DNA of 63,394 bases, filler included, from Lenisia limosa (lineage: Eukaryota > Protista > Breviatea), in the NCBI GenBank assembly GCA_001655205.1. It is 12 parts of 12 records of this genome, joined end to end, with 100 filler letters (N's around TTAATTAATTAA, not from the genome) between each part and the next. Parts side by side here need not be neighbours in the genome. Positions count along the whole stretch, not along the records: positions 32,467 to 34,960 come from LPNZ01002659.1; positions 35,061 to 40,786 come from LPNZ01011033.1; positions 40,887 to 44,639 come from LPNZ01004983.1; positions 44,740 to 46,679 come from LPNZ01010010.1; positions 46,780 to 48,382 come from LPNZ01007703.1; positions 48,483 to 53,284 come from LPNZ01002662.1; positions 53,385 to 58,465 come from LPNZ01003617.1; positions 58,566 to 62,035 come from LPNZ01009454.1; 4 more parts are not named here. One strand, 5' to 3'. The first letter of the stretch is position 1. Each line of letters starts with the position of its first letter. The notes beneath the pieces are model-generated. The model was not told the DNA's origin, did no database searches, and worked only from the letters and a program-made list of their open reading frames with translations. The translations under genes were made by a program, and so were the position numbers. Shown piece by piece: positions 32,467 to 61,500 of the stretch.

Positions 32467-34860
32467 CCCCCCACGGAAGCCTCCTCGTCGGCAGTTACGA
32501 TTCGCACGTCGTTGTTAACTATTGAGGGGACTGGCAGGGCGGGGAGAGCTTCGGCTCCTTCCAGGTCGTTGAGCGCCTGGTGATGGTGATAATGTTGTTG
32601 GTGGTGATGATGATGATTGTGGTGAATTAATTTCGATATAATACTATTAGTATTACATTCCAACCAAGAAGCCTTCCAAGCATAGAGGAATTGTCACCAC
32701 AGTTTCATTCCGGTTCGAAAAAGTCCAGTAAACTACCGATGGATTTATCGATAATTCATTCAGTTTTTTTTGAACCGAAGTGAAGCCCTAATTCCCACAG
32801 ACCTTCCAAACATAGAGGAATTCTCGCATACACGCACTCTGCTTTTGCGCGGTTTGGTTTTGGGACTTTAGAACCCTGTGGAGTAAAAATGAAGCACCGC
32901 GACGCTACCAAAGCCCAAATAGTATCTGGATGAAGCCGCATCATCACGCTTATAAGAGAGTTATAGTATCTGGACAGGTCCACGCCATCACATTTATAAG
33001 AGACATTGGATTAAAGTTGGTATTTCATCAACTGGTTAGAAACCACATTTTCATATTTGTAGCCTCATTGCTTTCAAGTCATTCATAAATTCCCCCTGGC
33101 TTACTTGATGAAATGATGAACGGCTGCATCCAGATGCCCCATGAAGTAGTGCTGCCGTCCTGGGGAGTAAAATGGGTAAATGTTTGAAAATAAAACAAAA
33201 ATACCCAAAATCAACTGTGACTTGGTTTGAGCAATTAGCGATACAATTAGAGTTAGACAGAAGTAAATCTCAGAGAGATCTGCCCATTCCAATCTCGGCT
33301 TAACCCCGCTTTAAACACCAAAAATGGGAGAAAAAAAAGTGAAACCCAAAACCCCCAAAATTTGGAAAACCCTGAATCGGGAAAACGGACATTTTATTTT
33401 GCAATTCTTCACCCTGGAATTCGTTCGTGTTGTTCACTCACCACAGCATCACATAGCCCTCATTGCAATCAACAAAAATGTACGAAATCACCTCCTTACC
33501 CAGAGTGAAACTCGCATGCGTGGCCACTTTCGTCCAGTTGGAGTCCTCATAGGCGGCAAGAGCGAGTGTAAAGCAGCGGCGTGCGTGGATGCGATGCCCG
33601 CCCGTGCCTAGTCTGGGGGGTGAAATGAAGGAAATTTCGATGAAGAATAGTGGCGTAAAGGTACTATGCTAATCACGAAAAGAATAACTGAAACTCCAAA
33701 CAAAAAAACAAGCAAAAACAAACACGAGGAAGTGAAATGAAGGGAATTTAAGAGGGGGGTGGAAAGGTAGAAGGGGAGGGGAGCTAGTCACGCGAAAAAT
33801 GCAAAAAAAAAGGAAGTCAAAATTCCTTCTTCTTGTTTCAAGGTAGTGACCAATAAATAGAGACGAGAAATGAAAACAAGGTTGTATCAAGGCAAAGCTA
33901 TCCACACCATCACGCTTTTAAGAGACATTGGATTAGAGTATAATATTCATTCACCCAATCATTTGCCTTACAACTCTGTGTACAAATAACTCACCTTTGA
34001 GCCGCCAGAATGAGGTTGAAGTAGCACTTGCCTAATATGGTAAGTTAAGGTTGAGCCACAATTTTATCGACTACATATTCAGAAATCCCTGTTTTATTTT
34101 CCTGAAATGATCACCCTACTAATAAATGGGGTGGTAGGCAACGCAGAGAATACACACACAATGTAGTACACACACATGTATAATATAGCTATTATATAAA
34201 TATATAATTATATGATATATTATACTACACGTATAATATATCATATGTGATTCTATGGCATAATTTTTTCATTAAACTCACACGCACACTAAGATTACAC
34301 GTCATTTCAATTGTTAGACTTACGAAATATAGAGCAGTGTTTATAGTCACCATTATAGCACCATCCATTTCACAAGATTATCATTTCCCTTACGAATAAG
34401 GGGAGTGGGGCAACGCAAGAAGCAATAAGCAGCCTGTTCCAGGAAGAGACCTCCTCGCAGGTCTGAGGACTGGGGGGGGGGGGGNNNNNNNNNNNNNNNN
34501 NNNNNNNNNNNNNNNNNNNNNNNNNNNNNNNNNNNNNNNNNNNNNNNNNNNNNNNNNNNNNNNNNNNNNNNNNNNNNNNNNNNNNNNNNNNNNNNNNNNN
34601 NNNNNNNNNNNNNNNNNNNNNNNNNNNNNNNNNTAACAATAATAAAAATAATAATATATTAGTAAAATGTACATACTACATATGCATATGGATATTCTAT
34701 CATTACTACTATTATAATACAAAACAAAAAATGTTAAAAACTACCTCAGCGGCGGCGTAAGTGAACATGTTGGCTGCGGTCCTAATCTGTCCGGTCGCCA
34801 AGAGAGCCGCGCCTTGCATCATGACCTGCCGGGAGTATTCCAAATGGTGCCTGGGATGGT
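32467..34860 (-). CDS. TRAPPC8: TRAPPC8/Trs85 internal fragment
   Basis: DLRGGLFLEQAAYCFLRCPTPLF|RKCYFNLILAAQR|..GHRIHARRCFTLALAAYEDSNWTKVATHASFTLG|RQHYFMGHLDAAVHHFI|..QKQSACMREFLYVWK|..LPALPVPSI, co-linear with human TRAPPC8. Confidence 0.9.
33612..33720 (-). repeat. Intronic repeat C; other copies 35281-35360, 56252-56300, 59350-59440
   Basis: Minus-strand consensus GTTTGGAGTTTCAGATTATTCGGTTCGTGATTAG..TACCTTTACGCCA..ATTCTTCATCGAAATTTCCTT. Confidence 0.8.
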
Positions 34861-35141
34861 TACTGAAGTGCAAACTACTGGTCCAGCTTTCTCCAAATGA
34901 TGACTTAAATAATAGAGTTTTTGGTTTGATTTAGTGCTTAACTTTCAGTTTCAAAAGGCTNNNNNNNNNNNNNNNNNNNNNNNNNNNNNNNNNNNNNNNN
35001 NNNNTTAATTAATTAANNNNNNNNNNNNNNNNNNNNNNNNNNNNNNNNNNNNNNNNNNNNCAGGGGGGTAAAATTGGGCAAATGAGAAAACTTCTCCTAG
35101 TCTGCCCCCCTCCCCACTTCGCAAATAGCCGAGCATTGAAC

Positions 35142-38100
35142 CTCAGTTATGTGCTGAGACCCCACAATGGCGAATTTGAGAGCCTGGTTGAACTTTCCAG
35201 GGCGGTGAGCCTATGGGGGATGAGCCTTTATCAAACAAAAGAAAATACCCAATTAAAGAGGCGAAGGGGGCAAAAAAACTAAGGAAATTTCAATGAATAA
35301 TATTGGCGTAAAGATTCACCAGGGTTAATAATATGATGATAAATCAAACAAAAAAATAGACAAGAATCATGCCATAATTGGACGAAGAAGGAAAGTTCGC
35401 AACCCCACAAACCTGGAATGAAATATTCAGTTTCACAGACTCCTTGGGCCCAAGCACCCATCGTGTTGGAGGTTTCATAACTTCAGGTTCGACAGGGGGC
35501 ACAACCGCGGCGGCATGGCCGGATGAATGACCGCGACTCGTCACAACCGGGGCTTCCTGCGGCTCCGGAGAGGGGGGACGCGGGGCGACCAGTTGGAAGC
35601 GCCGGACCTTATCTGACTGCTTTGGATTGGTCGAGGCTGGCATGTGGAGGACTTGAAGAAGGACTGGCGGCGGGATAGCGAGAGCGCCTTCGTCACTGTC
35701 GATCTCGGCAACCGGCTCTGGCAGAGCCTCAAGAATCTCGGCAAACACCGAATCACAGTCAGCGGAGCCGTCAACGGACACCGCAAAGGCCAGTCCGGGT
35801 GGAAGGTTGGCAAGGGCAAGAGCNNNNNNNNNNNNNNNNNNNNNNNNNNNNNNNNNNNNNNNNNNNNNNNNNNNNNNCTTGGCTTTGCCCTCCTTCTGCA
35901 TAGGCGCGTCAGATTGTGACGAGAACATTGCTACAGCGGCGTCGACGCCGGCAAGATAAACGTTGGCGTCGGCTTGCCACGGGTCCACGGAGTCCCCGGT
36001 CGGTGACAGGGCCCCCTTCTTACCCCGGCCCTTCAGGGGGCGTCCGCGTTTGTCTTTCGTTACATTCATTGCGCTGTCGCCATGCTCTAAAACAGGCTCG
36101 TCATCCTGAGGTACATTACCACCCGGGCTGGGGAGGGCACTTCCGCCAGGGGTCAAGGGAGCGTTGTCGCCTTTGTCTTTGGCGTTACGCCGGCGCCTCG
36201 CCTTCTTATCGTCGTCTTTGGACTTGGTCTCTGCAAGCCTCCGAGCCTCATCTTCGGCCACGACCTTCGCCAGCTTCTCCTGTCTACGCTGCCGCCGGAT
36301 CTGAAGAACGCGGCGGTCGTACTCGTCGCGCGCGTCCACGTCGAGCGCATCGTATTCGTCTTCTGACAGCTCCTGGAACTCGGTTTCCAGCCGCAGTATC
36401 TCGGCCTCTTGTGTCGCTGCGGCCGCGACAGCCTCATCAATCTCACGTTGCTTCGCTTCTTCAGCCTCGCGAATGCGGTTTTCCTCCTCCTGGCGCATGG
36501 TTTCGATACGCAGACGCGCAGTGTCCGTATCCACATTCACGTCCACTAACCAGCAGCGTTTGGCTGTCGGCTGCGGCGGCGATGCGGCTTCTTCGAATGC
36601 GGTGACAAGGGTCACGGCGCTCCGAGCCGTGTTCAGGCCAGTAGAGGTGATTTTCGACTTGGACTTGATCAAACCCCGTACCGTGGTCGGCGGCATAGAG
36701 ACGACCGGTGCTTCCTGTTCTTCTTCTGTCGGAAGCTGGACTTCGGGAGGGACGGGGCGTGTGGACGCGCAGCACGCAAGTCTGATTGCGGTCACCGTGG
36801 CTACCATACTGGCAGCGTACTTGGAGTTCAAACTGTCCCAAACCGAGCCTCTTGCATGGGCAGGGCTTCGGATGGCTGTCCAGGCCAAACCGGCAATTGC
36901 CTCTAAAGGAAGATTTTGTCCGGACTGAAGTCGGTCACGTGACCATTTCGCCAGGGGGTCGACATCTTCAGGCACAGTACCCGGGCGTTCGTCCTCGTTT
37001 TCATCTTCAACAGAGGGCGGGACCGCGGACAGAGCCGAGTCGACAATGTGGTCGAGGTTCATGAGAGTCAAGCCATGGCTCTCGATCAAGCTATTAACGG
37101 CAGTTGTCACGCCGGCACCACTCAGACCGTGAACAATGACGTTGATGGAGTTGTCGTGCGGCAACGCTGTGGCCTTCTCGTTGCTGTCAAGGTCGATCGC
37201 CTCGACCGTGTCAAGAGGAGGAAGCCCTTCAGCCACGCGACGAGCGCGCTCAGCGGCGAGCAGTGTGGGGTGTAAGCTCTCTCCGGCCTTTCGAGGGGGA
37301 AGGAGCATGGTGTCCGAATCCGGGTCCCAGCCCTGTGCATGGCGGAGAATCTCAACTTCCTGATGATACAATGAGTCGAAGTCCAAACTGTAGAACTCCA
37401 GGCTGTGCATCGTTGGGTTTGTCAGCTCAACTTCGCCCAACTCCGGCTCGACCGCGGTCGGCAAGACGGGTCCGAGTACCAGTTTGGAGGTACTGGCCTC
37501 GAGCCGAAGGACGTCGCCAGAGCCTCTCACGCTCAAAGTGCGGAAGCTGCTGTTGTGAGTGATCCGGAACGGCAGTTCGGCCTTAAAAGACCCCTCGTCA
37601 GTGGGTGCGAAGGTGACCTCAATATTGACTCTGCCGCCGGCGGCAAGAGATCCGGAGTCCGGGACGACTCTAAAGGGCGTGCCGGAGGTGTAGCGGCCTC
37701 CGCTTGTGCCGTATGGAGTGTACGACCATTGCGCCACGACGGGCGATGGGTTATGCAACTGGACTGTGACCACCTTGCAGAGACCGCAGACAACGTGGCC
37801 GAAGACAAGCTTGTCTTGGCTGAAGAGCACATCAGGGACCGTAACGTGTGCCTGGAGAAGAACTTCGACTGACGGTCCATCCCGTATGCTGATAGGAACA
37901 ATGGTGTTGACCATTCCTTGGTTGCCGCGTTTGGCCCGGGTTTGGATAGAGAACACTAAGTCCACGGACTCGCCAGGGGGCAGGGACTTTACCCGGTCAG
38001 GTGTGATACTGAAGAATGACGACTGCAGTGCTTTACGGCCGATGTCCAAACTGGCCGCTACCACTCCGGTGTTGGTGAACGTAACAACTCTCTTTCGAGA

Positions 38101-40758
38101 CTGTCCGCTGACGACTTCCCCGAAGTCGCATGTGAAGTTTGACAGGACCATTTGCTTGGTCACTACGGGGGCAGGGGTACTACGGAGACGACGGGCTGGA
38201 TGGTCAGTTCGTTTCATATTTTGTGCATTCCTACGGTCCCAAAAAAAGGCTGAATTTATCAATAAATCCTCGATAACATTATAAATACTTTATCGGACCG
38301 TAGAAAAGCACTATTCATATTAAAAAGGACATAATAAAAATAATGTAATAAAAAGGACATCATAAAAATATCAGCACTGTCAGCACATTCATTTGGTAAT
38401 GGTGCACGTAGGATATATCGAACGAACGCCGCATTATCTCAAAATGATATTGACGAAGGTAGTACTACAACTGACCCAAGATCTTCGCATACCTGAAGGG
38501 GGCGGGATCTCCTCCTTCGCAGTGACCGATTCCACAACAGCCAGTCTCTCAGCCTCGGCTCGGACCAGAGTAACTCGCTCCTGTTCCGCACGCGCAAGAG
38601 CTCCTGCAATGTTAACCGAAGTAAACAGGAATTTGCAGTTCACTTTAACGTGCACAAAATGTCTTCAAAGAAGAAGAAGAAGAAGAAGAAGAATAGTAAT
38701 AATAATAGTAATAATAATAACAATAATAATAACAATAATAATAACAATAATAATAACAATAATAATAATAGGGCCAACCAGGGGAAACAACAGAGGGAGT
38801 TTCAACACTAGTCATAGACTCCACTGCAAGAAGCGGAACTGGGGGCTTCTAGGAGGATGAATACCAAGAAGACTGTTATGCTGAAACGATCAAAGAGGTG
38901 CTTATGGTATCCCTATGTATTTATTTGTTTCCCTAGATTTCTAATGTATATAGTATTTCTCTTGTTCAATAAAAGAGAAAGCATTAGCCCCAAACCAGTT
39001 GCTCAGCGCCGTCTTTATCGGACACGGTCATATCGGTACGCGCAGTTTGCGGTTGCGTCGGCGCCTCCTGCTGCTCAACATCGCTTTCCTCAGCGGGAAT
39101 AACAGGAAGTTTCATTTCCGGCGGCAGAACATCCAGGATCGTCTCGAGAGTCGGGCCTCTCGCCGACGGAAGAGCGGATGGGGCGGCGGACGTAAAAGCG
39201 GATTGCGGAACACTAAAGGACCCCGGCTCGGCCAGGCTCATTTGGCTTGAGGAGGAATGGATCGTAGAGATCTGTTCGACACACACAGACCCTGAGGCAA
39301 CGCGGTTGAGAAGGTCCATGACGTTCGGAACGTTTTCGTCGGCTTCGGGAAGGAACATATCGACGCTGTCTTCGGTCCGCGGCAGACTCACGTTCACACG
39401 GGGGAAAACTCCGATTCCTTTCACTGTCACCTGTCAGCGGTTATATGGGGATAATCGAACACAAGTAGAGCATAACTTTTGGACTCGACGCTATTTTTAA
39501 ATCAATATTATATCAAAAATGCATTTTGGGACTAGAAGAGCAGTTTTTGAAAGAAGAGAGACAGGACGTAAGAAAAGAGAAAGGAGAACAAGAACAATGA
39601 AAAGCCCATTTGAAGATAATGGATAAGTAGAACCGCAATGACTCATCCCACTATCCCCCTTACGTCCTGAGGCTCGAAATGCGCCACTTTTACGGTGAAT
39701 TTCTCAGACACCGCTGCCGGGAGCCCGGGTGTGAACCGGACAACAAGCTTAACGCGGTCACCGGCCGGGATGGTGCCCTGGGCCGGGGCAATTGACAGAA
39801 GACCCCGTCCTGAGATGTTGTGAGTGTGCGATAACAAATTCATCACAATACATGAAAGAAAGCAATCTAGTATTTATATGTATTGAAAGAAAGAAGTAAA
39901 TTAATCAGATTGTAGATGGATTTGTCAGTCATAAAAGAAGCCGAAATAATTAATTTAAGGAGAAAATGACCCTCTAACGAGCGGCAGGGGGGATGAAAGT
40001 GCGGAACGCAAGGGGTACGCGGCCGAGGTTGGCGACAGCAATTTCCTTCTCTGCTGGGATGTGGTAGACCTGTGGCGTGAGAAGGAGAGATAAAGTCCTA
40101 TTTGAAATGTTAGTTAATGTGATATATCATCTCAACAGTCAACGATGTTATGCCCCTACCTGGTGCTTGAAATCTAGCATTGTGCGGTCAATCGCGTAAC
40201 GAGAAGCAGCAGCCTCGCCAGAAAGCAGTAAGCTGTACTGGGGCCCTCCAACGACATTACACACTGCGTAGACCTGAGCCTTCTTGGCTCCGAGAGCTCT
40301 GAAGACCACCCGGGACTCCAGGGACTCCCCGGGTTCTAGCTCGCCGGACATAGGGACAACATCGAAGATCTAAAGATCGGTTTAGGTGTTAAAGATCTAG
40401 TGGTGTTAAAGACTGATGATCGGATAAGGTGTTAAAGATATAATAATCGAATAAGGTGTTTATCGGTCAGCATTCTGATAGCCCTCCCATTTCCTCCACA
40501 GTGGAAGCAAAATGCGGCAGAAATGCGGCATACTTGGTTGAGTGGAGGGCCACCAACGGGGGGAGGACCGAGATTCGACCGCATTTCCAGGCCCCATTTG
40601 AAGTGAACGGGAAGGACAGACGAGTTGGTCATAGTCACCTTCTGGACGGGCTCGGTATCTAGATTGGCGCAGCCGAAGTTCACGCTCGTTTCGCTGAATG
40701 TCAGGTTCGGGAAGTGGGCTTTTGCTGAGAGCTCCACCGAGTCGCGCTGGGGGTGGTC
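35142..40758 (-). CDS. HYDIN: HYDIN central-pair protein, internal fragment with ASH/PapD repeats and P-loop-like insert
   Basis: About 2.8-kb exon inside the 972-aa ORF (DFGEVVSGQSRKRVVTFTNTG, FGHVVCGLCKVVTVQLHNP, FYSLDFDSLYHQEVEILR, NVIVHGLSGAGVTT); upstream exons FPNLTFSETSVNFGC, YSLLLSGEAA..YAIDRTMLDF, VAHFEP. Confidence 0.9.
38668..38770. repeat. (AAG)n/(AAT,AAC)n microsatellite in a HYDIN intron
   Basis: Visible directly. Confidence 0.95.
38906..38968 (-). repeat. Intronic repeat G; other copies 42491-42550, 54971-55031, 59882-59935, 60255-60311
   Basis: Host-sense consensus TGAACAAGAGAAATAATATACATTAGAAATCTAGGGAAACAAATAAATACATAGGGATACC. Confidence 0.85.
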
Positions 40759-40899
40759 CTGTGGGGTTAGAAAATCATTATCCATANNNNNNNNNNNNNN
40801 NNNNNNNNNNNNNNNNNNNNNNNNNNNNNNTTAATTAATTAANNNNNNNNNNNNNNNNNNNNNNNNNNNNNNNNNNNNNNNNNNNNTTACTCCCCCCAG

Positions 40900-42861
40900 A
40901 CCGAGGATTACGAGGTCCTCAATGTCACGCCCTCCGAAGGCCGTTTAGCACCAGGGGCGAAGACCAAGGTCACATTCCAGTTCAGGCCGCTTTTGCCACA
41001 ACCGCGACAGGGTGAGAGTTATTGGATCTATTGGATCTATTGGATCTATTGGATCTATTGGATCGGGGGGAGGGGGAATTCAAATCATATACTACTGCAT
41101 ATGCTCATATGCCCCTTCCCTGGGTAACTTTACATTAATATCCTTCATCGCAATTCTTTGTTTTGTACGATGGAGTGATGCTTGATTGTTTTTGTCTTTA
41201 TTGTTATCAACCCTTGTGTGTTGCTAGCCATCAGAGTTTATTTTGTGCTATTTTATTTTATTTATTTCATTAATTTTCCAATTACCCCTTCCTCTCCCCC
41301 CCCCCAGGCTTCTCAGCCGCCGACCCTCCCGGCACGTCCCTAATTCGCGAGTACGACGTTCCAGCCTCGTTGAAGGTTGTTGAAACCGGCCATGAGGTGT
41401 ACCTCAACTTCAGCGGACGGGTGGGGGGGGGGGGNNNNNNNNNNNNNNNNNNNNNNNNNNNNNNNNNNNNNNNNNNNNNNNNNNNNNNNNNNNNNNNNAG
41501 TTAGAATTCAGGTCCCCAAATAATTCAGAATATTTTTCGTTAATTTACGAATTTCTTAAGTTAAAAAAACTTAATTTTTTAATAATTAAATTTACGCACA
41601 TATGACGATGTAAAATTCACGTCGCCGAACCCTTTAAAACCTTCGGTTTGCCTCACCCCTCCAGGCCATGCGCCCCATTGTGGAACTGTCTCTTAAGGAT
41701 ATTAACTTCGGCGAGGTGGGTGGGAGTCGAGCTGTGGTTGATATGTTTCTTCATTTTTAGGTGTTTTGTATGTATGTATATACCTTTTTTGAGTTATTTC
41801 ATAAAATATTCAGGAAATTTAGGCAATTTTGGAAGGACACTTACCGTATTTAGGTTGTTACTCTCGGAGCTGCAGATGTTGCTGTCAAGCTGCGTAATCT
41901 CTGCCCTGAATTACCCATGCCATTTAGTGGGGGCTATGTCATTTGTGCATTTATTGTGTTCATAGCAATCAAAACAGTACAACCTCTTTTTAACTAATCA
42001 CGCAGACTTTGAGCGCGTGGCCCATTTTCGCGTCAGCCCCCTCAAAGGTACCCTGCAGCCTTTCCAGTCCACAGACGTCATTCTCACTTTCGCGCCTAAT
42101 CAGGTACGCTAATATTGCGCCATGTTTACGAATCGTGTGTTGTTTGTACTTGTTCTTTGTTTGTTTTGTTGTTCTCAACCCTCGTGTGTTGTCAGCCAAC
42201 AGAGTTGATTTTGGNNNNNNNNNNACCCGGATTCGGCCATGTTGACGACTCTTGTACTCAGTGTGAGGCCAAGTTCTTCAAGGCCACTACCGCTAATTCC
42301 GTATGGGGGAGTGGTATATCACCAGTGGATGTGGGTTAAAATATGACATTTTGGTTCATTCACACGTGTGCAATATTGTTTTCCATCTGATACTGTCCAA
42401 TTATTAATTAATTTATCATTTTTAAAAAAAAATCTTTTGCGTTATTTTGATCTATCCACACACCCAATATCTTTGACCTCCCCCTTTTTTTAACAAAAGA
42501 AATAATATACATCAGAAATCTAGGGAAACAAATAAAGAAATCGGGATACTATCAACAAATAAATATCAAAATTTTAAATTTTTTGGATACTTTTTTTAAC
42601 TGTATTGTAAAGTGAGGTAAAACAAATTACCCCCTTAATCAAACACCTCTTTATTTCTTTCTCAACTCCACACCGAGCCCGGGCTTTTTTTGTTTTGTTG
42701 TTCTCAACCCTCGTGTGTTGTCAGCCAACAGAGTTGATTTTGGGCTTTTTGTTGTTGTTTCATAAATTGTCCAATTTTACCCCCCTCTGTACTGACACCA
42801 CAGATGGGGCAATTCCGCTCGGTCCTGCCACTGCATGTCTGCGGCGGCACCGGCCTTGTCG
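40900..42861 (+). CDS. CFAP47: CFAP47-like ASH-domain ciliary protein, internal fragment
   Basis: VTPSEGRLAPGAKTKVTFQFRP..EYDVPASLKVVETGHEVYLNFSG..LSLKDINFGE|..LRNLCPELPMPF|..VAHFRVSPLKGTLQPFQSTDVILTFAPNQ|MGQFR resembles CFAP47 (NFEIDPEKG..SFVPHQLGVFK). Confidence 0.75.
41028..41066. repeat. (ATTGGATCT)n short tandem repeat in a CFAP47 intron
   Basis: About 4-5 units visible. Confidence 0.9.
42678..42803 (+). repeat. Intronic repeat B (intron 3'-end cassette), about 15 copies in the window
   Basis: Consensus GGGCTTT..TTGTTGTTMTCAACCCTCGTGTGTTGTCAGCCAACAGAGTTGATTTTGGGCTTTTT..TTCATAAATTTTCCAATTTTAC(C)n..AG. Confidence 0.9.
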
Positions 42862-43274
42862 GTACGGGGGTATTATCGGATACAGCGGCCTTGACGGTCC
42901 GGGGGTATGAAAATTACAGAGTTGTAATGTTAATTATTGGCTGAATTAATAGTATGATTATGCTACAATCTACTATCTCTTATAGACATGGTGTGGACGA
43001 TTTCGGCCAGATACAACCTTATTTTTTTTCATTTTTTTTCATTGTTACATATAGCGGACTTGTCGGTATGTTTACTCACTCCTCAGAACTTCGCGTTATG
43101 GGCTCAGCCGTCGGGTACCAAAGATGCGTCAAGGCAAGGGTGGGGGTGTAGTTGATTTTGTCTTTTTTATTATTACCCAAAAACTCCCTCAGTCTTGCCT
43201 TCTTTTTTGTTCCCCAGATACCCTTCTATTGTCCATGCCCTTACCCCGCCTCCCCCCCCCCCCCNNNNNNNNNN

Positions 43275-44509
43275 TTTTCTAAGTGCGAGTGTCTCCCCAC
43301 GTTTATTAATGTTGGAGGGGGTCACAATTCTTGTCATTCATCATAATCATCAACATTTACCATAATCATAATCACCACCATCATTATCATCACCATCACC
43401 ACCAACATCACCATCATTAACATCAACATCAACATCATCATCATCATCATCATCATCACCGCCAATACAGGTTGGCAGCGACTTAGAACCGACATGTACC
43501 TGTCCACAAGGAACTGAACTCACTATTCGAGGTGAGTTACATTGGGTGCTTTAGAGGGGTGTGAGTTATAGTTTTTCTGTTTCCATAGAGGTTGACACAA
43601 AATTTGCTGTTAAATATACTGTACTATAATCCAATATCTTTTATAAGCGTGATGGTGTGTACGGCTTCGGCCAGATACAACCTTGTTTGTGTATTTCCTT
43701 CTCCTAGATAATACCTTGCTTTCTTGGAATTCACTTCGGTTCGAAAAATACCAGTAAAATAGTGGTAATTTTCGAAGATTAATCGAGAAATTAAGTCTTG
43801 TTTCGAACCGAAGTGAAGCCATATTTCTTGCTCCTCTACATCTTATATCTGATAACTTGGCTCTCAAAAACTTCATCACTTAGATTCAACCCCTCTCTGC
43901 GCTCCATGCCCCAAAGGCTACATTACTGGTGAGGGGGCTGGGAGGTCTAAAAAAAATGGCTGGGATCGGTGGGATAGTCTGTATATCTAGGTCTTCACGT
44001 CAGCTGGAAAAAAGACTGATTTTTTCGATAAATCGTCGACAGCTTTCGATATTTTCCTGTCATTTTTCGGACTGGAGTGAAGCCCAATGTCTATGGTGTA
44101 ATTTTTTGAAGAGTTGGATATAAATGTTCATAGAGNNNNNNNNNNNNNNNNNNNNNNNNNNNNNNNNNNNNNNNNNNNNNNNNNNNNNNNNNNNNNNNNN
44201 NNNNNNNNNNNNNNNNNNNNNNNNNNNNNNNNNNGTATTCATCCAAATAACCTTTTTTCCCCTGCAATTATTTTCACTTTTCCCTCAATATTGAAACTCG
44301 AATTTCAAGCAAGCTTTTCCTTAGAACCAATTGTCGACATCCACAATATTTCTCTCCCTTTAATTTATCTCGAATGTCCAGGGGACGTTGGCTTCTGTGT
44401 GCCATGCGATGATGGGGAGACCTCTAATGTCCTCGGGACCGTTTGTGTCTGTCTCCAGGGCTTCTATCTTGATGAAGATACGAAAATATGCACCAAGTGC
44501 CCGGATGGT
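43275..44509 (+). CDS. Cys-rich repeat (CxC/CxxC, GCC2_GCC3-like) surface-type protein fragment; an extra exon lies at 42225-42300
   Basis: Exons CECLPTFIN, PTCTCPQG, PLCAPCPKGY, CVPCDDGETSNVLGTVCVCLQGFYLDEDTKICTKCPDG with GT-AG borders. Confidence 0.75.
43335..43460. repeat. (CAT/CAC/CAA)n microsatellite
   Basis: Visible directly. Confidence 0.9.
43625..43692 (+). repeat. Intronic repeat D with GGC-TTCG-GCC hairpin; other copies about 6782, 32915, 32965, 33872, 42980, 46815, tandem 48484-48692
   Basis: Consensus TCCAATRTCTYTTATAAGCGTGATGGTGTGKACGGCTTCGGCCAGATACAACCTTGTTT. Confidence 0.85.
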
Positions 44510-44629: not shown

Positions 44630-44859
44630 TATTAACATGNNNNNNNNNNNNNNNNNNNNNNNNNNNNNNNNNNNNNNNNNNNNTTAATTAATTAANNNNN
44701 NNNNNNNNNNNNNNNNNNNNNNNNNNNNNNNNNNNNNNNGACCTTGCATCCTGTCAGATCACACGGGGTGATATCGTGGTGAGAATGGGCGCTGATGTGT
44801 TAAAAAAAACAACAGTTTTTCATAAGAATTCATGCATGAAGCAAATGGAGCCAGGAAGC

Positions 44860-46290
44860 CTACCATAGATACGCAGAGACAGAGTGCATAAACGCAGTTG
44901 ATATGAAGGCCGACCCAAAGTACGTTGAATGGTTGACAGCCATAATTTCTAGGTCTGATACTAAACCGGCTGTTAAGACACGGTAACAAAGCTCACTTGT
45001 TATGAGGGATTGTGAGATTGAAGGGTCTGAAAAAAACGTTTTCAAATGTATGTCCGCCGTTTTAGCCTTGATATTTAGCCCTTCAACAGAGTCGAAAGGA
45101 GAACAGTCATTCTTCTGAGCCAATGGAACAGCATAAGGGACAGTGAGATGTTGGAACTGCTCAAACGCCTTAAGAGGCGGCTCGCTTCCAATCGAGAAGT
45201 AGAGGGATTCAACTGAGAAGGGGCGGCGGTTGCGTACTAGTGGCGTNNNNNNNNNNNNNNNNNNNNNNNNNNNNNNNNNNNNNNNNNNNNNNNNNNNNNN
45301 NNNNNNNNNNNNNNNNNNNNNNNNNNNNNNNNNNNNNNNNNNNNNNNNNNNNNNNNNNNNNNNNNNNNNNNNNNNNNNNNNNNNNNNNNNNNTAAATCAA
45401 GTAATAAAGAGGTATCCAAAACACACAAGACTATAGCTCAAGAATGAGTGTAAAGGCGCAATAGGGGGGACGGAACAGAATAATACTAGCTATATGATAT
45501 GACGTTAATGAAGTAGATATCAGATAGTTGAATGGTGTTATTGCCGAAAGAACTATCATACTCAATCAAGTACGAGCGGATTTCATGACCGTCATCCGCC
45601 TTCTGGGCCATGTATATCGGCAGGNNNNNNNNNNNNNNNNNNNNNNNNNNNNNNNNNNNNNNNNNNNNNNNNNNNNNNNNNNNNNNNNNNNNNNNNNNNN
45701 NNNNNNNNNNNNNNNNNNNNNNNNNNTATCACACAGGGTATTCCAGAAAAGAAGAAGATAATTGAGCCCCGGAACAAACCTGCACGTTGAGGCGCATCAT
45801 GTTGTCCGGCAGGGGGCAATACATCCCAGCATACTGTCTCATCAGATATCATCAGACATACGATATGGTGTCCAGTTGATTCATACCATACAAGAACAAG
45901 AGCAAACTCAGGAAACCCCCCCAACATAAAGTGAGTGATTGCTTGAGAGGTAGTAGTCATTTTGCCCGACACGTAACCCTCGGCCCGTGGAAGCGCCCAG
46001 TTTCAGAATGGGGTGGTCCATGGGTCTAAAGAATAAGCAAGCCTGTGCAGCCGGCGGCCTACTCAACATCCGTGGTGCCGACAGCAAGGATCCAGAGGCC
46101 TGGGCTTGAGACGCACATGGGGACCGTGACCTTCAAAATGACAAAGAGCAGCAGAATATAACTTATTCCACTACAATCGCTTATTTTAGATCCAAAGATA
46201 CTTAATCCACAAACAAAGCTATCGGCCATGCTGAAGAACAGATACTCCCATTCGTTCTTTTCGGAGTTGTATGCGAAGAAAGACACCTCT
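44860..46290 (-). CDS. Hypothetical protein fragment
   Basis: Long open stretches (RPFSVESLYFSIGSEPPLKAF..AQKNDCSPFDSVEG..; SFFAYNSEKNEWEYLFFS) broken by gaps; no family recognised. Confidence 0.45.
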
Positions 46291-50259: not shown

Positions 50260-50400
50260 CGGTTTGCTGTTCAAGTTTTAATCTGAGTATATAATAGTAT
50301 GAATCAACGGGTTTGCTGTTCTAGTTTTAATCTGAATATATAATAGTATGAATCAACGGGTTTTGCTGTTCAAGTTTTAATCTGAGTATATAATAGTATG
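50260..50400. repeat. Three tandem about 49-bp units
   Basis: GGTTTGCTGTTCWAGTTTTAATCTGARTATATAATAGTATG x3. Confidence 0.9.
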
Positions 50401-51127: not shown

Positions 51128-52180
51128 AGGTAATGTTCCTTTTCTTCATACAAACGTAACATGGAATAATGAAACAAATTAACAAAGATGTGATTTCATA
51201 AATACTTAACACAAACAATAACTATGATACAAATATGCGACAACGGTAGTTGCCAGAGCGACTTCAGAAAGAATCATCCATAACTCTTTTGAACTCTCAG
51301 GGAGAGTAGATATTGCGACAAAACCTGTGGGTACATATTTCGGAAACCAGAAACCAGAGATAGTTTGGATCCTAAAACAGAAATTAGCCGTCGCGGTTTG
51401 AGACCGCCAAATTATTGCATATTGTGTTAATTATGAAAAATATTTAAGAGCGTTGGACCCCCTAAAGGTCACCCGCTGAACCTGGATGGATATATTTTAA
51501 GATTTACGTTCTACTCAATTATGTTGTTGTTTTAGGTTCTTTATGTTCATTGTCTCTGTTAAATAAATGCCTGTACTATTGATTCTTGATAGCAACACTA
51601 GAAGAGCATGTGAGTTTTCCAAGAACATGCTTTGTGGTGGGGAAAACACAAAACACGTAACGCAAGAAAAGAGTTGCATTTAAATAATAAAAAATGGGAA
51701 AAATAAATAAATAATTAAATGACTGAAAAATACAGAAAAAAAGTAACAGCAAAATGCTAAATGAGTTGTTCTTGTGTATTAATGCCAAATGAAGGACACC
51801 TCTATTACAAAGCTGTAAAAAAACTTCTTTTTCACTTTAAAAGGGGGTTTTCAAAAAAAGGCGGCAACTGGGTGACCACGTAGTTCAGTTCAAAATTAGT
51901 CTCTGAAATTTTTCATTGCTTGCCTCTTCAGAAATTATATATTGTACATAATTCTCGTGTTATTGATTGTTGGTCGAAATAGGTTTTTTTGCATCACAAG
52001 TAGGCACCTCTGTGATCGCACTCATACTGGTGATCGCACTCATACTTGCGATCGCACACCAATATTTTACTAATATTCAACCTCTATTTTGCCTACATAT
52101 TATATATACATATATTTGGGAACCGATACGCTTGAACGTGCTGAGGACAAAGCTGTACACCGGGCCTTCGTAGTCAACCT
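51128..52180 (-). CDS. Hypothetical protein with hydrophobic C-terminus
   Basis: Exon VDYEGPVYSFVLSTFK; terminal exon ..ELWMILSEVALATTVVAYLYHSYLFVLSIYEITSLLICFIIPCYVCMKKRNIT-TAG. Confidence 0.4.
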
Positions 52181-53210: not shown

Positions 53211-53539
53211 CCAAGTCAATGTCACCCTTGTGTGTTGTCAGCCAACAGAGTTGATTTGGGTTTTTTGCTTCATAAATTTTCCAANNNNNNNNNNNNNNNN
53301 NNNNNNNNNNNNNNNNNNNNNNNNNNNNTTAATTAATTAANNNNNNNNNNNNNNNNNNNNNNNNNNNNNNNNNNNNNNNNNNNNTGCAATACAATAAAAC
53401 AACTCCAAATATGGGATAAAGAGAAATGTCATGATGGGGAGTAATTTAAACAAAGGCAAATCATGCAATATAGTATATATCATATCTACATCATATATTT
53501 TCAATATCACATTGTGTTGACATATTGCAAACTACACTA

Positions 53540-56500
53540 CGGCGCATCGACTTGGGATACCCTTGTAGTATATGGAAATCCCATATTTTGTTGAGATTTT
53601 CATACAATCATAATTCCAATTACTTTCCATAAGAATCCCCGAAGTGCAACAACAAATGTTGTTCACTGTTTACAAACAACAGCAAAGCATACCCAACGGG
53701 GCTGGTAGAGTGGCCTTGAGATTGCCTGGGGTCACTTTGAGGTGGACGTCAATGGGGTCAACGATGGACTGAATTCCGTGCATCCTACGGGGGGTGAGAT
53801 GGAGGTCATCTAATCAATACAATATTGGCAGGTTTGTAAAAATAAAAGGGGGTGGAGAGTACAAAACAAGATACATAATAAATGATCCATTTCTAAGAAG
53901 TACTTCATCTTGAGAGGCAAGTCTTGCCCATTAGATTGCTTTCTGAAGAATTTTATGGGTTGTCCTAATTTTGAAATTCTAAAACCACTTCTTAAAAGTC
54001 TGTACATTTTGCCAAGAAGGCTTTATCTGCCCAATAAAGAGCTTTGTTTAGCGGAACAGCAATCTCTTATGTCTTAGAGTTTCATGAAAACAGGCTCCAT
54101 TTTTTGAAATATTATGGCTATTTAATGGGTGGTGCGATACGTGTCTCTTTGTTAATTCGGTGGAATGGTACAGTCTGGTATTAGTTCAACAAGCTTGCAA
54201 AATATATTAAATTTTGTCCAGTCAGAGAGGATTTTTTTTTTTTTTTTTTTTACATTCAGTAAGGGATGTTTCTGAGATATGTTTCATGTATTCCATCCTG
54301 ATAATGCGCATTGCAAAATAATATGACATTGCAAAGCTTGTTTGTTTTCTCCCCAGATTCTTAGGCCTTGGACATATGCCTTGGTCCGTCAGCAATGAAA
54401 ACACAGCATGCAAAGACCCCAAAGACCTCGAAGGTCAACAAATTGATACTTTTAATAAAATATGAAAGACTATGCGTATATACATACATATATTATTAGT
54501 GTATGTAATACTCTATCGATGTACAGTATATCATCAGGTAATGTGTGAGCTACACATATTTACGATGGCAGATGTCAGTATTATGTATAGTATAGTATGA
54601 ATGACGGATGAATCTGCTGTTGACTGTTTTAGTACAACGCCACTGCGTTTATACGCTTTATTCGGCAATTTCAGAATACAGGCCCTGTCCTATCCACTTT
54701 CGTTGACACAATTGCGGCTTGTTATGAGGAGTTTAAGGCCTGCTGTAACTCGCTATTTTCAAACGAAGAATTTTTGGGTTTCAGCCTTATGTCTCAGTTA
54801 ATTATTATTATTATTTCTTTCAAAAACAAAAATCTGTTTACAACATTAGCTCACATAAAGGCATTAACTAGCCAGTACTCACCCAGCTGCGGCTGGGGTC
54901 TCCAAGCACCTAGTGTGACTCGGGGAGGTGGGCACCAAGGAGCGTGGGCGCGGAGGCATGGTAACTTGTTGGTATCCCTATGTATTTATTTGTTTCCATA
55001 GATTTCTAATGTATATTATTTCTCTTGTTCAAATTTTGTTTTTCTTCACCCGGTGTGACATCACTTCTCTTCAGCTGCGTTGAAACTGTGTTCAAGGTAT
55101 TCTGTTGGGGGATGGGGGGTGGCAATGGATGATAATGTTCATCTTGATGTTTTTTTTTGTACTTATTGTAGGTTTCGGTCCCGACAACATTGCTCTGCAA
55201 TTGCAGGCAACACCTTGCATATGCGTCTCCTGAGGATGATAGAGGAATCCGTCTGACAGACTCTGTTTGAGGGCAATTACTGGTATTACTAGGGCGCGAT
55301 TGATTTTAATTTTTTAATTTTAAAGGAGCCCATCAGGAAGGAAACAAGCTTTGTGTGTGTTCCTTCCCTGCGCTATGTATCAGAACTGAAAGAAGATTTC
55401 CAAGATTTCTTTGATGGAGGAGTAGTTTCAAAAGGAGTAACAGAGTGGTTTTTTAATGAAATTGTATCTACCTCTTAAACTTTTTATTTATCAATCGCTC
55501 ACTTACAATTTTTAACCAAATAAAAACCAATCGCGTACTTCCAAAATACCTTTCTCGGAATAATTTTAAAGTACACAGCCAATCATGCGCTAGAAGAAGA
55601 ATAGGGGAAGGGGATGAAATGAAAAANNNNNNNNNNNNNNNNNNNNNNNNNNNNNNNNNNNNNNNNNNNNNNNNNNNNNNNNNNNNNNNNNNNNNNNNNN
55701 NNNNNNNNNNNNNNNNNNNNNNNNNNNNNNNNNNNNNNNNNNTGCCACCGAAGAATCTGAAGGGTTAGTATTCTGGTGCAAAGAGTCCTGAATACGACAG
55801 AATGAGATAAGGAATATTGTGGGTATCAATGGCAACAAACAAAAAAAAAATCCAGTAATCTGCTTTTGGTGATGATTCACAGATAGCACAATATATGATA
55901 TTCCACTAGAGACGAAATTATCTGATTCAACATGACCAAAATGCTAAATAATGATCATAATAATAACATTTAATTAGATTCAGCAATAATCCAAATGCAA
56001 AGCTCAAGAAAGCTAGAGAAAGCGTCCAACCAAGGAGTGAGGAGGCCCTGATCTGATGGAGGGACGCCTTGAGGCAGAAGGCATCGGGGGTGACATCCGC
56101 CCATATGTTGTTCTTGTNNNNNNNNNNNNNNNNNNNNNNNNNNNNNNNNNNNNNNNNNNNNNNNNNNNNNNNNNNNNNNNNNNNNNNNNNNNNNNNNNNN
56201 NNNNNNNNNNNNNNNNNNNNNNNNNNNNNNNNNNNNNNNNNNNNNNNNNNNCTAATCACGAACCGAATAATCTGAAACTCCAAACAAAACAAAAAAAAAC
56301 AAACAATAGCACACGAAAGTGTAAAATTGGAAAATTTATGAGAAAAAAAGGCCCAAATTAACTCTATTACCTTGTGACACCACACATGCAACACCGTCTA
56401 TATGAACGTCCACCGAGTGTGGCAGAACAGGAATTTCTTCAGTGACAGGGGGGTAGTGCGTCGGAGCTAGGGAGGTGATAGAGAATTAATAATGAGCAAT

Positions 56501-58450
56501 GGGGAATATGTAACGGTAATTTCAGTAAGAAAGAAATTCGGTAATATTTTTGACTAAAAAAACGCTCCTAGTACCCCCCCCCCCCNNNNNNNNNNNNNNN
56601 NNNNNNNNNNNNNNNNNNNNNNNNNNNNNNNNNNNNNNNNNNNNNNNNNNNNNNNNNNNNNNNNNNNNNNNNNNNNNNNNNNNNNNNNNCTGCGTTCAAC
56701 ATGCTGAGTGGGGGTAAATAGGGAAATTCACGAAACAAAAACAAAACAGAAGCAGCACTGATGGCTACATTTCGGAAACAATGCTAGTGATGGTGGGGAC
56801 ACGGATATGATTGAGCTTGATCTTTAGTAAATCGGGTCAGGACTTATACCTGTCATTTATGATGTATTCAACTCTAAATGGAATTGTAATGGTGAAAAGG
56901 AGAGAGGATAGTGATGAGAGTAAATTGGATGAGAAAATAATGAAAATCCAAATTAATTATAATATTAAATGAAGAGGGATGGTTGCTCTTATGTGAACAC
57001 ACGATTACCCCTTGTTCAATCCCCGTCATACCCAGCTCGAATGGAGCATTCACTCGTATCCTCCCCAAAGTTGGTTAGCTTCAGCGATAAGGCGTTGGCT
57101 TCTAAAATCATGAATGTGGTGAAAAATACAGTATGGTATATTCGTTTAAAAAAATCAAAATATTTTGTATAAAACTATCCTCAGCCCTGGCGTACCATTG
57201 TTGTCTGCTTGCTTAGGAGGCGCCCATTCAATAGAGGGTGGCGCTGATACTAAACAAAATAAGTCAAATAATCCTCCGATCAAAGAAAAATCGATCAATC
57301 GACGATAAATATTGACATTCTAGACTACCCATTTCTCAAAAACTGAAAGCAGGAGTTACCTCTACTGTTATTATACACATCCACATAAATACATGTGCAT
57401 AGTATGATGTACATATCATATATCATATCCAAATATATCGGCTATCCCCCGCACAGGCAGCCACGGCGGCGGTGATAGTGTCCGAGGCTTCTCCCACGTT
57501 GAGAGCGAGACTTGAAAACTGGGGGAGGGGTAAGCCCAAATCAACTCTGTTGGATGACAACACAGGAAGGTTGGTTGATAACAGCAAAACATAGCCCAGG
57601 CCAGGCGCTTCTGCAGCGCCGCATCCCATCCCTCCATGGAGGGTGGGGACAAAGGGGGGGGGTGAATAAAACAACTCTGTTGGCTTGAAACATGAGGGTT
57701 GAAAACAACAAAACAAATAAAGCCCGGACCAGTGCTTCATGTAATGAGATATGTGGTGAAGAGGGGGGTGCAGTTGGATGACCGACTACAGATAGTGAAA
57801 CAATATGTAAGAAGAAGAGGTTCATACAAAACAAAGAATAAGAAGAAGATGAGCATTGCAAAGAGAACAGCAAATAAACAGCAACAGTTTACAACACCTG
57901 ACCAACGCTAAGTTTGACTAGGGGAAGCGAGCGGTCTCCCGGGCTTGGCATTTGTTGCGGCTTAGCAAGCCGACCGTCAAAGGAATATTCCGGCGTCATT
58001 GCTTGGAGAATAGAAGTGTTCATTGCAGCCTAGTGGAGAAGGGGTAAAAATGGAAAAACTATAAAACAAAACAAAAACCTGGATCAACTCTGTTGGCTAA
58101 ACATGTATGAAACACACGAGGGTGCAAAGACAGATGAAGAAGTAAAATCAGTGTATATCCATGTATGAAACAACTCAATTATTCTGCTGTTGTTTGGTTC
58201 AAACCCTGCCGTCTCTCCTATGGTCTCTATGTGTCTCTAGTTCAAATTTATGAGTTTGTTATAGTTCATTCTTTAAACTAAACATTCCACACTTGCAAAT
58301 AAAAATACATCCAATGTCAAAAGCTCCGCAGCCAACCTTGACCGTGCCAATTTTAGCCCGGAAATGTGACCCTTCATCGGAGTTATCGAAGTTAAAGTCG
58401 GCTCCTTGCAGCTGTACACTTATTTCCAGCATCTGGTCGTGACGTAATCC
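53540..58450 (-). CDS. Fragment(s) of a large beta-rich protein, possibly VPS13/ATG2-like
   Basis: Scattered minus exons (GLRHDQMLEISVQLQGADFNFDN..AKIGTVKVGC; HGIQSIVDPIDVHLKV; EANALSLKLTNF); family assignment is a weak impression. Confidence 0.3.
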
Positions 58451-58565
58451 TGGGAGGCACGGGAGNNNNNNNNNNNNNNNNNNNNNNNNNNNNNNNNNNN
58501 NNNNNNNNNTTAATTAATTAANNNNNNNNNNNNNNNNNNNNNNNNNNNNNNNNNNNNNNNNNNNN

Positions 58566-61500
58566 CTGGACCCCCTCAAAAAAGTCTCCCCTTGAGTTGA
58601 CACGCTCACGTCGCTCGAAGCCCCTGGGGGGTACAGGAATAATAATACGATTATTTTTATTGGTACAGAGCTGAAGTCTCAGCTCTTCCATTCCTCCCTA
58701 GCCTGGGCTTTGTTTTGTTGTTATCAAGCCTCGGGTGTTGTCAGCCAACAGAATTGATTTGGGCTTTTTTATTTCATAAATTTTCCATTTTTACTCCCCC
58801 CCCCCCCCCNNNNNNNNNNNNNNNNNNNNNNNNNNNNNNNNNNNNNNNNNNNNNNNNNNNNNNNNNNNNNNNNNNNNNNNNNNNNNNNNNNNNNNNNNNN
58901 NNNNNNNNNNNNNNNNNNNNNNNNNNNNNNNNNNNNNNNNNNNNNNNNNNNNNNNNNNNNNNNNNNNNNNNNNNNNNNNNNNNNNNNNNNNNNNNNNNNN
59001 NNNNNNNNNNNNNNNNNNNNNNNNNNNNNNNNNNNNNNNNNCTGTTTTGTTGCAAACACTGGCGTTGGGTAACGATTCATTTGCATTTTCTGTTGTATCT
59101 TCACGCCAATATCACTTCATGGGTTTGTCACTCCATTTTGCTCCCAAATCATCATAATCGTATTGACCGCCTCATGTTTGTCAGCTAATAGAGGATTTCG
59201 GGTTTTGTTTTATTCATAAATTTCCCCATTTTACTCTCCTCTCCCCCCAGAACGCCGAAATTCCACGGCATTGATGAGATGACGTCCGTGTATGCCACGC
59301 CTCATCTTGCGCCATCTTCCGCTGATGCCGCCTGGACCGTGAGAGGGGGGTAAAACGAAGGAAATTTCGATGAAGAATGTTGGCGTAAAGGTACTAATCA
59401 CGAACCGAATAATCTGAAACTCCAAACAAACAAACAAAAGAACAAAGGGGGGGGGGGGGGTNNNNNNNNNNNNNNNNNNNNNNNNNNNNNNNNNNNNNNN
59501 NNNNNNNNNNNNNNNNNNNNNNNNNNNNNNNNNNNNNNNNNNNNNNNNNNNNNNNNNNNNNNNNNNNNNNNNGGTTTTTTCTTTTGTGCAGCTTTGCGGG
59601 TACTTAAGTCCCTGGCAGGTACACGAGACAACGCCAATGGAAGCGAAGGTCATCTGCGTTGACATCTCTGATAGTGCTGAATTCATGGCTGTGTTGCTCG
59701 ACTCCATGACCATTAAAGTGTACCAGTGTAGGAAAGTGCATGATTCTTTATCGGTTGCCCCTTAATTACCCTTCTTACATCTGCTCCTTTTTAACCATTA
59801 TTAACCATGGGGTAGTTACCAGTGTCGGCAGCTTGAGATGCGGACGCACAGCGGTGTTTTGTAGGCTTGGTATTTTTTTTTTAACAAGAGAAATAATATA
59901 TACATTAGGGAAACACATAAATACATAGGGATTCCTCAATAGCTTTATGTTGTTTTTTTATGGTGTTTGAAGTGTTTTTGGACCGCAGTTTTGTGATTGT
60001 GCTAACATTGTTCAGCCCTGAAGGCTCCCAATGATAGCGAGGAAATCTCCTTCTGGACATGGCACCGACACAGGTCCGAGGGGGGAATGATGGAGTATAT
60101 GATATAGTATATGATATAGATATCGATATATATTACCTGTCAAATTTATGTTTCAAAAGCTCTATTTGTGCTGTAGAATGAACGGTGTTGAGAGGGGGTG
60201 CAGAAAAGGATAGAGTTTTCGAAAACCTTTATACAGTATCATATATTTTTTTTGATCAAGAGAAATAATATATAGTATACATTAGAAATCTAATAAATAC
60301 ATTGGGATACCATAAACAAATTACCATGCCTCCGCACCCACGCTCCTCCGCCTCCCTCCCGAAACATTTATAATGATAGTCTATCATATAGTATTCAGTG
60401 ACCGGGATAAGTCTTGAGCAATATATTTTCCTTGGGAAATCACATGGCAAATCTGTCAAGACTTATCCTGGTCACTGTATAAACTGGAGTGACTGGCAGC
60501 TGACGTCTGATATTCTCAGGGAAGAAGGGTCCACTCGTAGTTCCCTCTTACTTCTTGCTGTCCCCAACTTTGATACTGGTTGGGGGGAGGTGATGCTGTA
60601 TTGTTAGTAGGGCTTCCCTACGGTCCCAAAATAGAATGAATTTCCCGATCAATCCTCGATCATATCGATATTTTGACGGTCTTTTTCGGACCGTAGGGAA
60701 GCCCTAGTTGTGTGCCCCCATTCCCCTCGCTTTGTTACAACTAGGGCTTCCCTACGGTCCGAAAAGGACCGTTTAAATATCGATACGTATCGAGAATTTA
60801 TCGCGAAATTCAGTCTTTTTTGGGACCGTAGGGAAGCCTTAGTACATCACCCCCCCCCCCCGCNNNNNNNNNNNNNNNNNNNNNNNNNNNNNNNNNNNNN
60901 NNNNNNNNNNNNNNNNNNNNNNNNNNNNNNNNNNNNNNNNNNNNNNNNNNNNNNNNNNNNNNNNNNNNNNNATTTTGGGCTTTTTTGTTTCAAAAATTTT
61001 CAATTTTTACTCCCCCCCCCCCCAGGCCAAGTTCTGTTCTACAACACGCGAACGGGCTGTCTTGTCGATAAGTTCGGCGGACACGAGGGCATGACGTCTG
61101 TGTCCTTCCACAACGACATCATGCAGACCTGTGGGGGGGGGGGGTGGCTTTGCTATGTAACCCACAAGTCATTGAATAGATCACAAATCGAGGTTACCAT
61201 GTATATTTGGAGTATTGTACAGAAGACTGAGATTTTTCAATAAACTGAAGAGAAGGGGTGGATGTGAGTGCACTTTTTTGTTTTCATGCTTTCGACAGTA
61301 AAAATGTAATCGGTTTAAAAAGCTTCTCCAGCAACAACAACAACATGAACGATCATCCCTGGCATCAGTTACATTGCTTACTTTGCAGCTGCTAATGACT
61401 CCGTTTGCCTCTGGCGCCGCAGCAATTCAGAATGGGCCATTACACATGTTATTCTAGCTGCTGTAGGGGGGTGTTACTAGGGTTTCCCTACGGTCAAAAA

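Follow-up and report, generated by a model that had tools for sequence, protein, structure and literature searches.

What carries a short non-coding sequence to the 3′ ends of introns in unrelated genes, each time in the sense orientation of the host? The question is raised by repeat B, which was studied in a stretch of 63,394 nucleotides from the breviate Lenisia limosa (assembly GCA_001655205.1), referred to here as the window. The window consists of 12 scaffolds joined by linkers, has many internal gaps and holds 59.6 kb of called bases. Two public runs of the same study contain its DNA in the form of contigs, namely X1, whose kind is unrecorded, and X2, a poly(A) RNA library; X1 is possibly the source of the assembly and does not, therefore, count as independent support. 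From this one window, together with the depth and the joints of one study, we infer both the genome-wide behaviour of repeat B and its mechanism. A preliminary description had regarded B as a mobile cassette akin to introners, whose 3′ end follows the host pattern of branch point, C-tract and AG and which lies in sense at intron ends. The cassette, its end and its placement are borne out here and the introner framing is not; B likely copies itself into an existing C-rich splice signal rather than creating new introns.

Copies, extent and abundance of repeat B

Scanning of the window with a profile built from six seed copies identified 14 copies of B at E<=2.1e-4, eight of which were non-seeds, and a profile built from 13 copies returned the identical 14 at 16.6-101.8 bits, the best match in ten shuffled windows being 7.2 bits. 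Repeat B is real and more than chance, and the earlier observation largely stands. Sixteen copies had been listed, of which 14 score above the shuffled controls; the other two, at 35061 and at 40887, lack the length needed for assignment: the former reaches 5.8 bits with the B profile, under the shuffle maximum, and the latter comprises merely 13 bases after a linker, in which the B profile detected nothing. HYDIN holds no confirmed copy of B.

The core of B measures ~110 bp and is preceded by a GC-rich head, which was recovered from loose ends in both runs and matches window positions 57600-57632, so that the unit is at least ~150 bp long. Copies differ from one another (median identity 73% over 70 pairs in global alignment) and, in aligned columns, share 76-98% identity with two reference copies. 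Summed contig depth was 167,000-373,000 over the B core and 18-31 in unique sequence; this quantity is not a copy number and is usable as an order of magnitude only, in which sense the genome would contain ~6,000-15,000 copies, or roughly 10^4, consistent with 14 in the called bases of the window. The B pattern had no match in metagenome contigs or in viral contigs. B is a high-copy, non-coding repeat.

Orientation and position within host introns

That every copy lies on the coding strand of its host, as first described, was confirmed for all 14 copies, which are in the inferred host sense (13/13 introns, P=2.4e-4; 7/7 genes, P=0.016). The host strand is well supported for seven copies and weakly for two, and was assigned from the codon model and phase continuity alone for five, all in one gene. 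Strong evidence is available for the CLC gene (Pfam, 3e-7), the U-box gene (1.4e-8) and the WD-like gene, in which an RNA junction of GT..AG type lies on the plus strand, and moderate evidence for the Ig-domain gene (Pfam, 0.0019; codon model in 4/4 exons). Evidence is weak for the TRAPPC8-like gene (PDB, E=0.05; codon model in 2/4 exons), for whose exon a homologue search found none, and for the cysteine-rich gene, which has a Pfam match at 0.0018, yet the codon model favours minus frames in three of its four exons. The gene at 55743-58465, which contains five B copies and for which a homologue search detected none, has its best frame on the minus strand in four of seven candidate exons and its best stop-free frame there in a fifth, the plus strand being best in two. 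A bias towards one host-relative direction, with hosts assigned by hand, is also seen in three further repeat families of the window (C, 3:1; E, 5:1; F, 7:1), which pooled give 15/18 (P=0.008); B shows no significant difference from this pool (P=0.24). Orientation alone is not special to B; its position sets it apart.

Ten copies have a visible 3′ flank, and eight of these stop 8-25 nt short of an AG, and two are immediately followed, on their downstream side, by a further element of family B or C; at a chance rate of 0.1-0.2, eight of ten near an AG has P=4e-7 to 8e-5. The earlier statement that B ends at acceptors holds for eight of the ten visible tails, not for the two stacked copies, and 40887 is unassigned. 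Copies are named below by a position at or near one end. On the minus strand the acceptor copies are a 3′ part at 33160-33228 (acceptor 33160, intron 33499-33160, phase 1), the most diverged copy at 56705-56767 (inferred acceptor 56705), the copy at 57519-57632, whose 5′ head is the longest and which has lost an internal stretch by deletion (acceptor 57519, intron 57897-57519, phase 0) and the copy at 58030-58126 (acceptor 58030, intron 58336-58030, phase 0 alone open). On the plus strand they are B41200 at 41178-41307 (acceptor 41307, intron 41012-41307, phase 1 alone open with a phase 1 donor), B42678 at 42672-42803 (acceptor 42803), B59168 at 59165-59250 (acceptor 59250) and a 3′ part following a gap at 60972-61025 (acceptor 61025, phase 1 alone open). 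The two stacked copies, both on the minus strand, are the diverged B56325 (56318-56386), which begins a few bases past an inferred donor and is followed by C without an acceptor, and B57653 (57654-57743), the upstream partner of a B-B stack. The remaining four, all on the plus strand, enter gaps: B10131 (10133-10181), the 3′ half only, in a CLC intron with an intact-looking older acceptor before it and a possible target duplication of 6-7 nt; B42158 (42151-42214), interrupted by a 10-N gap; B53223 (53221-53284), which follows the U-box exon and is cut by the scaffold end; and B58702 (58697-58809), which follows a pyrimidine tract and TAG and whose C-run enters the gap.

One RNA contig of depth 2 has 59251 as the exact first base of its match and connects 59338 with 59619, thereby giving both ends of a plus-strand exon (59251-59338). 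It supports the AG after B59168 as the acceptor, 59250, and, on the plus strand, an intron of GT..AG type. This is the sole RNA-supported B acceptor, the others lying outside RNA cover; the exons of the gene at 56252-58465 are uncovered in run X2, and missing cover is no evidence on its acceptors. Donor and acceptor phases agree in all four B introns checked, and in two of these only that phase is open.

The introns themselves are not copies of one another. In the five with both ends visible, 184-391 nt of sequence is not B, and comparison of the 5′ intron parts, for which the donor coordinates of some introns are off by a few to 34 bases, gave z>3 in two of 55 pairs and no relation in 53. The earlier view that these parts are unrelated is therefore mostly correct, apart from a degenerate C element upstream of B at 41119 and, marginally, another at 59093. 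An introner-like origin finds no such agreement, as B never spans a whole intron (5/5 fully seen) and there is no sign of intron creation.

Sister family C and stacked elements

Four observations are new relative to the preliminary description: the sister family C, stacks of elements, an antisense C at a used donor and the sense bias in E and F. The body of C is unlike that of B, and the B profile gives no significant match to C copies; the final 30 bases are common to both (24/31 alignment columns; 3/5000 shuffles). Summed depth over C reaches 339,000, similar to B, and the C pattern had no match in metagenome contigs. Four copies are clear, all on the minus strand: one at acceptor 33608 (33608-33731), preceded by an 18-nt C tail (33732-33749); one immediately past the tail of B56325 that enters a gap (56252-56316); a diverged copy in mid-intron of HYDIN, in host sense (35266-35371); and one antisense to its host (59345-59446), flanked on either side by a C-run and placed 6 nt inside donor 59339, which has RNA support.

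Head-to-tail stacks of B and C occur five times in the window, two of them depending on weak C matches, namely the degenerate C at 41119-41163 on the plus strand upstream of B41200 (E=0.012) and the marginal one at 59093 (E=0.12), and one on the 18-nt tail. C-then-B and B-then-B joints recur among the joints listed for run X1. At 56316 and 33731 the downstream element starts at, or no more than two bases past, the TTTYAC of the upstream element. The more diverged member is upstream in all three informative stacks, a further two being tied or uninformative; taken alone, stack order by divergence is weak evidence. A long introner composed of F-E-C-B as one unit was considered and rejected, as both B-then-C and C-then-B orders occur.

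Proposed target-primed insertion at the acceptor C-tract

B and C have in common an end consisting of TTTTAC and a C-run, of which the A is the putative branch point. In B the 3′ end is constant and 5′ truncation is variable, as seen both in the alignments and in the depth gradient: summed depth is 241,000-373,000 over the core and drops to 36,000 at 58708 and to 6,700 in the head at 57605, and that of C declines from 339,000 to 18,600 away from its tail. Constant 3′ and ragged 5′ ends, the depth gradient, the tail common to B and C and the stacking fit target-primed insertion at a C-tract. SINE (short interspersed element) families with a common partner can have the same tail, according to the portion of PMC11481361 available. 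AC followed by a C-run and AG also ends six long introns free of B (5549, 40767, 41655, 48278, 53031 and 56454). Of 23 short myosin introns picked by hand, most carry a branch-like motif ~10 nt upstream of the AG, and none has a run of five C.

We tentatively prefer to read B as a SINE-like, target-primed element that inserts at the branch point and C-tract of the host and whose antisense copies are mostly purged. An unseen reverse transcriptase would insert B at a C-rich tract past the host branch point, the target being the host's native YAC-CCCC-AG acceptor pattern. The G-rich template strand would be nicked and would prime on the C-rich tail of the element, giving fixed polarity and variable 5′ truncation, and the end of the element would rebuild a branch-point-like TTTAC together with the target, so that splicing would survive and later copies could stack there. 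A mirror event at donor G-runs would yield antisense copies, as seen once, for C; the tail in reverse reads as a donor, and for that reason most of these copies would be purged or disfavoured.

A number of results weigh against this mechanism. No reverse transcriptase or other mobile-element protein was detected among 55 window open reading frames (ORFs) scanned. Neither a transfer RNA (tRNA) nor a B-box was found in B, no Rfam match covers it at E<=1, and its sense T-runs of 4-7 would stop RNA polymerase III (Pol III), from which it follows that B is not a classical SINE; the Pol III head test is to be read with the qualification that the true 5′ end may lie past the ~30 extra bases seen. Target duplications were sought, as had been proposed, and no constant one emerged, most copies having 3-5 nt repeats at chance level; on the supporting side there are two possible target duplications, at C59339, which is flanked by C-runs, and at B10131, which repeats 6 nt, both 6-nt candidates lying within C-runs. 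Sites with a C-run after A, exonic sites included, are occupied in 11/52 cases in sense and in 1/49 in antisense (P=0.004). The antisense strand has about as many such sites, many of them donor G-runs, and the difference in occupancy implies that C-run targeting alone is insufficient and that selection against the donor-like reversed tail, or a strand-specific source, is also needed. No conserved fold was found, as one of five B and C copies (sense) beats its shuffles and the consensus energy is -0.48 kcal/mol; the covariation term for B, 0.05 kcal/mol, supports neither a conserved covarying fold nor a conserved hairpin, and no hammerhead core was found in B. The depth gradient may partly come from poor mapping in T-rich parts. 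Finally, a DNA element would better account for an inverted repeat at 42785-42803.

Alternative explanations

That inverted repeat introduces the strongest rival to target-primed insertion, which is nonetheless unlikely: B and C as non-autonomous DNA elements, of the inverted-repeat or rolling-circle kind, whose right end carries the AG and which insert at or next to existing acceptors, parts being lost afterwards through deletion and slippage in the C-run. B42678 ends in 19 nt that form an imperfect inverted copy of the B core (38/20000 shuffles), and the majority flank past the C-run of C in X1 (182 contigs, agreement 0.42, in C sense) has CTAAC and ends like the tail of B42678 at nine of ten bases, which suggests a common element-encoded end; inverted-repeat families (D, F and G) exist in this genome. 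However, the inverted repeat is absent in seven of eight acceptor tails, the copies have ragged 5′ ends, a constant target duplication is missing, and B lacks the HINE/DINE-1 features set out in the available part of PMC4067079, such as a TT target and T-run termini.

The end common to the C flank and B42678 could also be read as the tail of a prolific source intron. Such a source belongs to a second unlikely explanation, according to which B and C are splicing-dependent retroposons with the excised intron as RNA intermediate, homing to 3′ splice sites. Only sense copies at the 3′ end of an intron would then gain a free tail, and this tail, from C-run to AG, would prime reverse transcription at the acceptor of another intron, by which the branch point and pyrimidine tract would be rewritten in thousands of introns. 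The lack of a Pol III head would thereby be explained, as would the polarity, the variation among tails and the stacking, and a homing element of this kind would be far more novel than the SINE-like element preferred above.

It is quite unlikely that ectopic conversion or templated break repair homogenises intron 3′ ends, using the C-run and AG as microhomology and with B merely the winning sequence. Sense polarity, ragged 5′ ends and varied tails are all predicted by such a process, and three 5′ junctions (10131, 42678 and 58702) end in AG after a pyrimidine tract. These AG junctions, three of ~9, are not clearly above chance, a total of ~10^4 copies needs drive, and the antisense C at a donor, the two discrete families and the stacks are left unexplained.

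More improbable is an old whole-intron introner of which B would be the 3′ part left behind in introns that have since grown. The core does contain a branch-like motif and a C-tract, and in intron 56391 B begins 7 nt past the inferred donor; against this, the 76-98% identity of copies to the two references contrasts with the unrelated 5′ intron parts, and later growth should split B rather than precede it, the occurrence of both stack orders being a further difficulty. Random insertion, with selection alone removing every copy not in sense at an acceptor, is very improbable; the preliminary description had raised selection against antisense copies. In its favour, the reversed tail reads as a donor and families E and F share the sense bias. 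Most copies would then be expected at neutral sites between genes or in mid-intron, whereas 14/14 are intronic and each of the ten whose flank is visible lies at an acceptor or within a stack; eight of ten within 25 nt of an AG (P=4e-7 to 8e-5) is not accounted for by selection alone. That the pattern arose in assembly, through the collapse of repeats and breaks at C- or G-runs, is scarcely credible, for although 4/14 copies enter gaps, and although the sequences on either side of the 10-N gap at 42215, within a B copy, belong to different genes, copies differ (median 73%), exact X1 contigs pass from unique sequence into B and an RNA contig uses the AG after B.

Other features of the window

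Long-intron donors often precede G-runs of 5-12 (41421, 47937, 61131, 43140 and 42303), mirroring the acceptor C-runs, and these runs are found at many assembly gaps. Family F, which has imperfect terminal inverted repeats and high depth in X1, is present at 61981-62035, 33853-33984, 42915-43052, 43612-43709 and other loci, of which seven of eight are in one host-relative direction; one copy lies just past a donor marked by an RNA contig at 61980/61981, and the end of F has a 9-base motif in common with the B core. Family E, at least 165 bp long, is found at 38899-38977, 42482-42565, 54869-55033, 59874-59939, 60246-60351 and 9016-9074, and its distal part contains acceptor-like and donor-like motifs 27 nt apart, resembling a ready-made mini-exon. 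Families D (14 copies) and G (3 copies) are palindromic, TA-flanked and MITE-like (resembling miniature inverted-repeat transposable elements), with copies at 60606-60843, 61477-61579, 43725-43825 and ~11 further places; they cause matches to microRNA families in the Rfam scan, and a few D copies lie 10-30 nt from an acceptor.

The source is a flagellated eukaryote rich in introns, with Pfam matches to CLC, to Ig domains of the HYDIN type and to a U-box, and the best homologues of a class I myosin in the window, 44-57% identical, are class I myosins from many lineages. Short introns and no copies of families B-G characterise 10879-14869, 14970-32366 and 44740-46679 (22.4 kb called), and the remaining 37 kb of the window carry every copy of these families, giving two intron regimes within one assembly. 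The 10-N gap at 42215-42224, within a B copy, links the Ig-domain gene to the cysteine-rich gene and may be a scaffolding misjoin via the repeat. A small gene on the plus strand at 54357-55230, amid minus-strand exons of one scaffold, is either a nested gene or a misjoin, and a full 5S ribosomal RNA (rRNA) match (73.5 bits) lies in sense within an intron of the CLC gene (9566-9684, plus strand). Triple direct repeats of ~20 bp near intergenic ends (620-680 and 52012-52060) resemble subterminal repeats of DNA transposons; no Pfam match was obtained in the ORFs near them.

Implications

Should the pattern hold across the genome, a mobile element would exploit the 3′ splice signal as a safe target for thousands of copies and supply a working replacement. 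This would be a transposon route to the remodelling of existing splice signals, distinct from intron gain, and elements of this type would probably be filtered out by current introner screens. The turnover of branch points and pyrimidine tracts, and the use of excised introns as templates for mobility, would become testable in one genome.

Comparison with known systems

No repeat that targets existing 3′ splice sites was found in the literature searched, which included few subscription papers and no supplements of introner papers. Introners resemble B in being repeated and non-coding with splice-signal-like ends and often a bias towards one orientation, as described in the available parts of PMC9860276, PMC12130899 and bioRxiv 2020.10.14.339549. 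They are whole introns with similarity extending to both boundaries, and secondary insertions into pre-existing introns are filtered out, according to the accessible text of PMC12130899; B instead adds to the 3′ end of introns with unrelated 5′ parts, has no whole-intron similarity and would probably be discarded by a screen of that type. Orientation bias is described, in the sections available of PMC9860276 and bioRxiv 2020.10.14.339549, for intron-creating classes only, and the proposals of spliceosome-driven movement in the available part of bioRxiv 2024.03.26.586863 deal with whole introns.

Small nucleolar RNA (snoRNA) retroposons are, like B, RNAs hosted by introns, and their sense intronic copies can undergo processing and move again (PMC1687206, in part), which makes these retroposons a precedent for sense copies in introns being the active ones; B differs in having neither an Rfam snoRNA match nor an A-tail, and acceptor targeting does not appear in the part of that paper available. 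Helentron derivatives of the HINE/DINE-1 type have in common with B a very high copy number, a microsatellite-like interior and an inverted repeat (in one B copy). They are defined, in the available text of PMC4067079, by insertion in TT, T-run termini, subterminal inverted repeats and a 3′ palindrome, whereas B has no TT target or T-run termini and is flanked by a C-run. Nor does B resemble MITEs or other elements with terminal inverted repeats, as the inverted repeat is present in one of eight acceptor tails and no duplication of fixed length was found; the flank consensus of C holds a possible conserved end. Antisense Alu elements, after near-random insertion, supply polypyrimidine tracts and a 3′ splice signal and give rise to rare new exons. 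B likewise supplies a 3′ splice signal, in most visible cases at constitutive acceptors.

SINEs with tails derived from long interspersed elements (LINEs) are closer, having, like B and C, different bodies with a common 3′ tail, intronic tandem arrays and truncation (PMC11481361, in part). Unlike the SINEs described there, B has no tRNA, 5S or 7SL head, Pol III boxes, A-rich tail or regular target duplication of 6-18 bp; it has instead a C-run tail and a splice-site position. Target-specific non-LTR retrotransposons (elements lacking long terminal repeats), such as Utopia, R1, R2, Tx1 and the microsatellite-specific elements, have fixed polarity at a repeated target, as does B, and this is read as a low-harm strategy in the available part of PMC4640811. 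The targets named in that part are rRNA, small nuclear RNA, tRNA and spliced-leader genes, transposons, microsatellites and telomeres, and splice acceptors are absent from it. B differs from these elements in that no coding partner was found among the 55 window ORFs. Although it fails the SINE head test, B would, by analogy, work most like a passenger of a target-specific non-LTR element.

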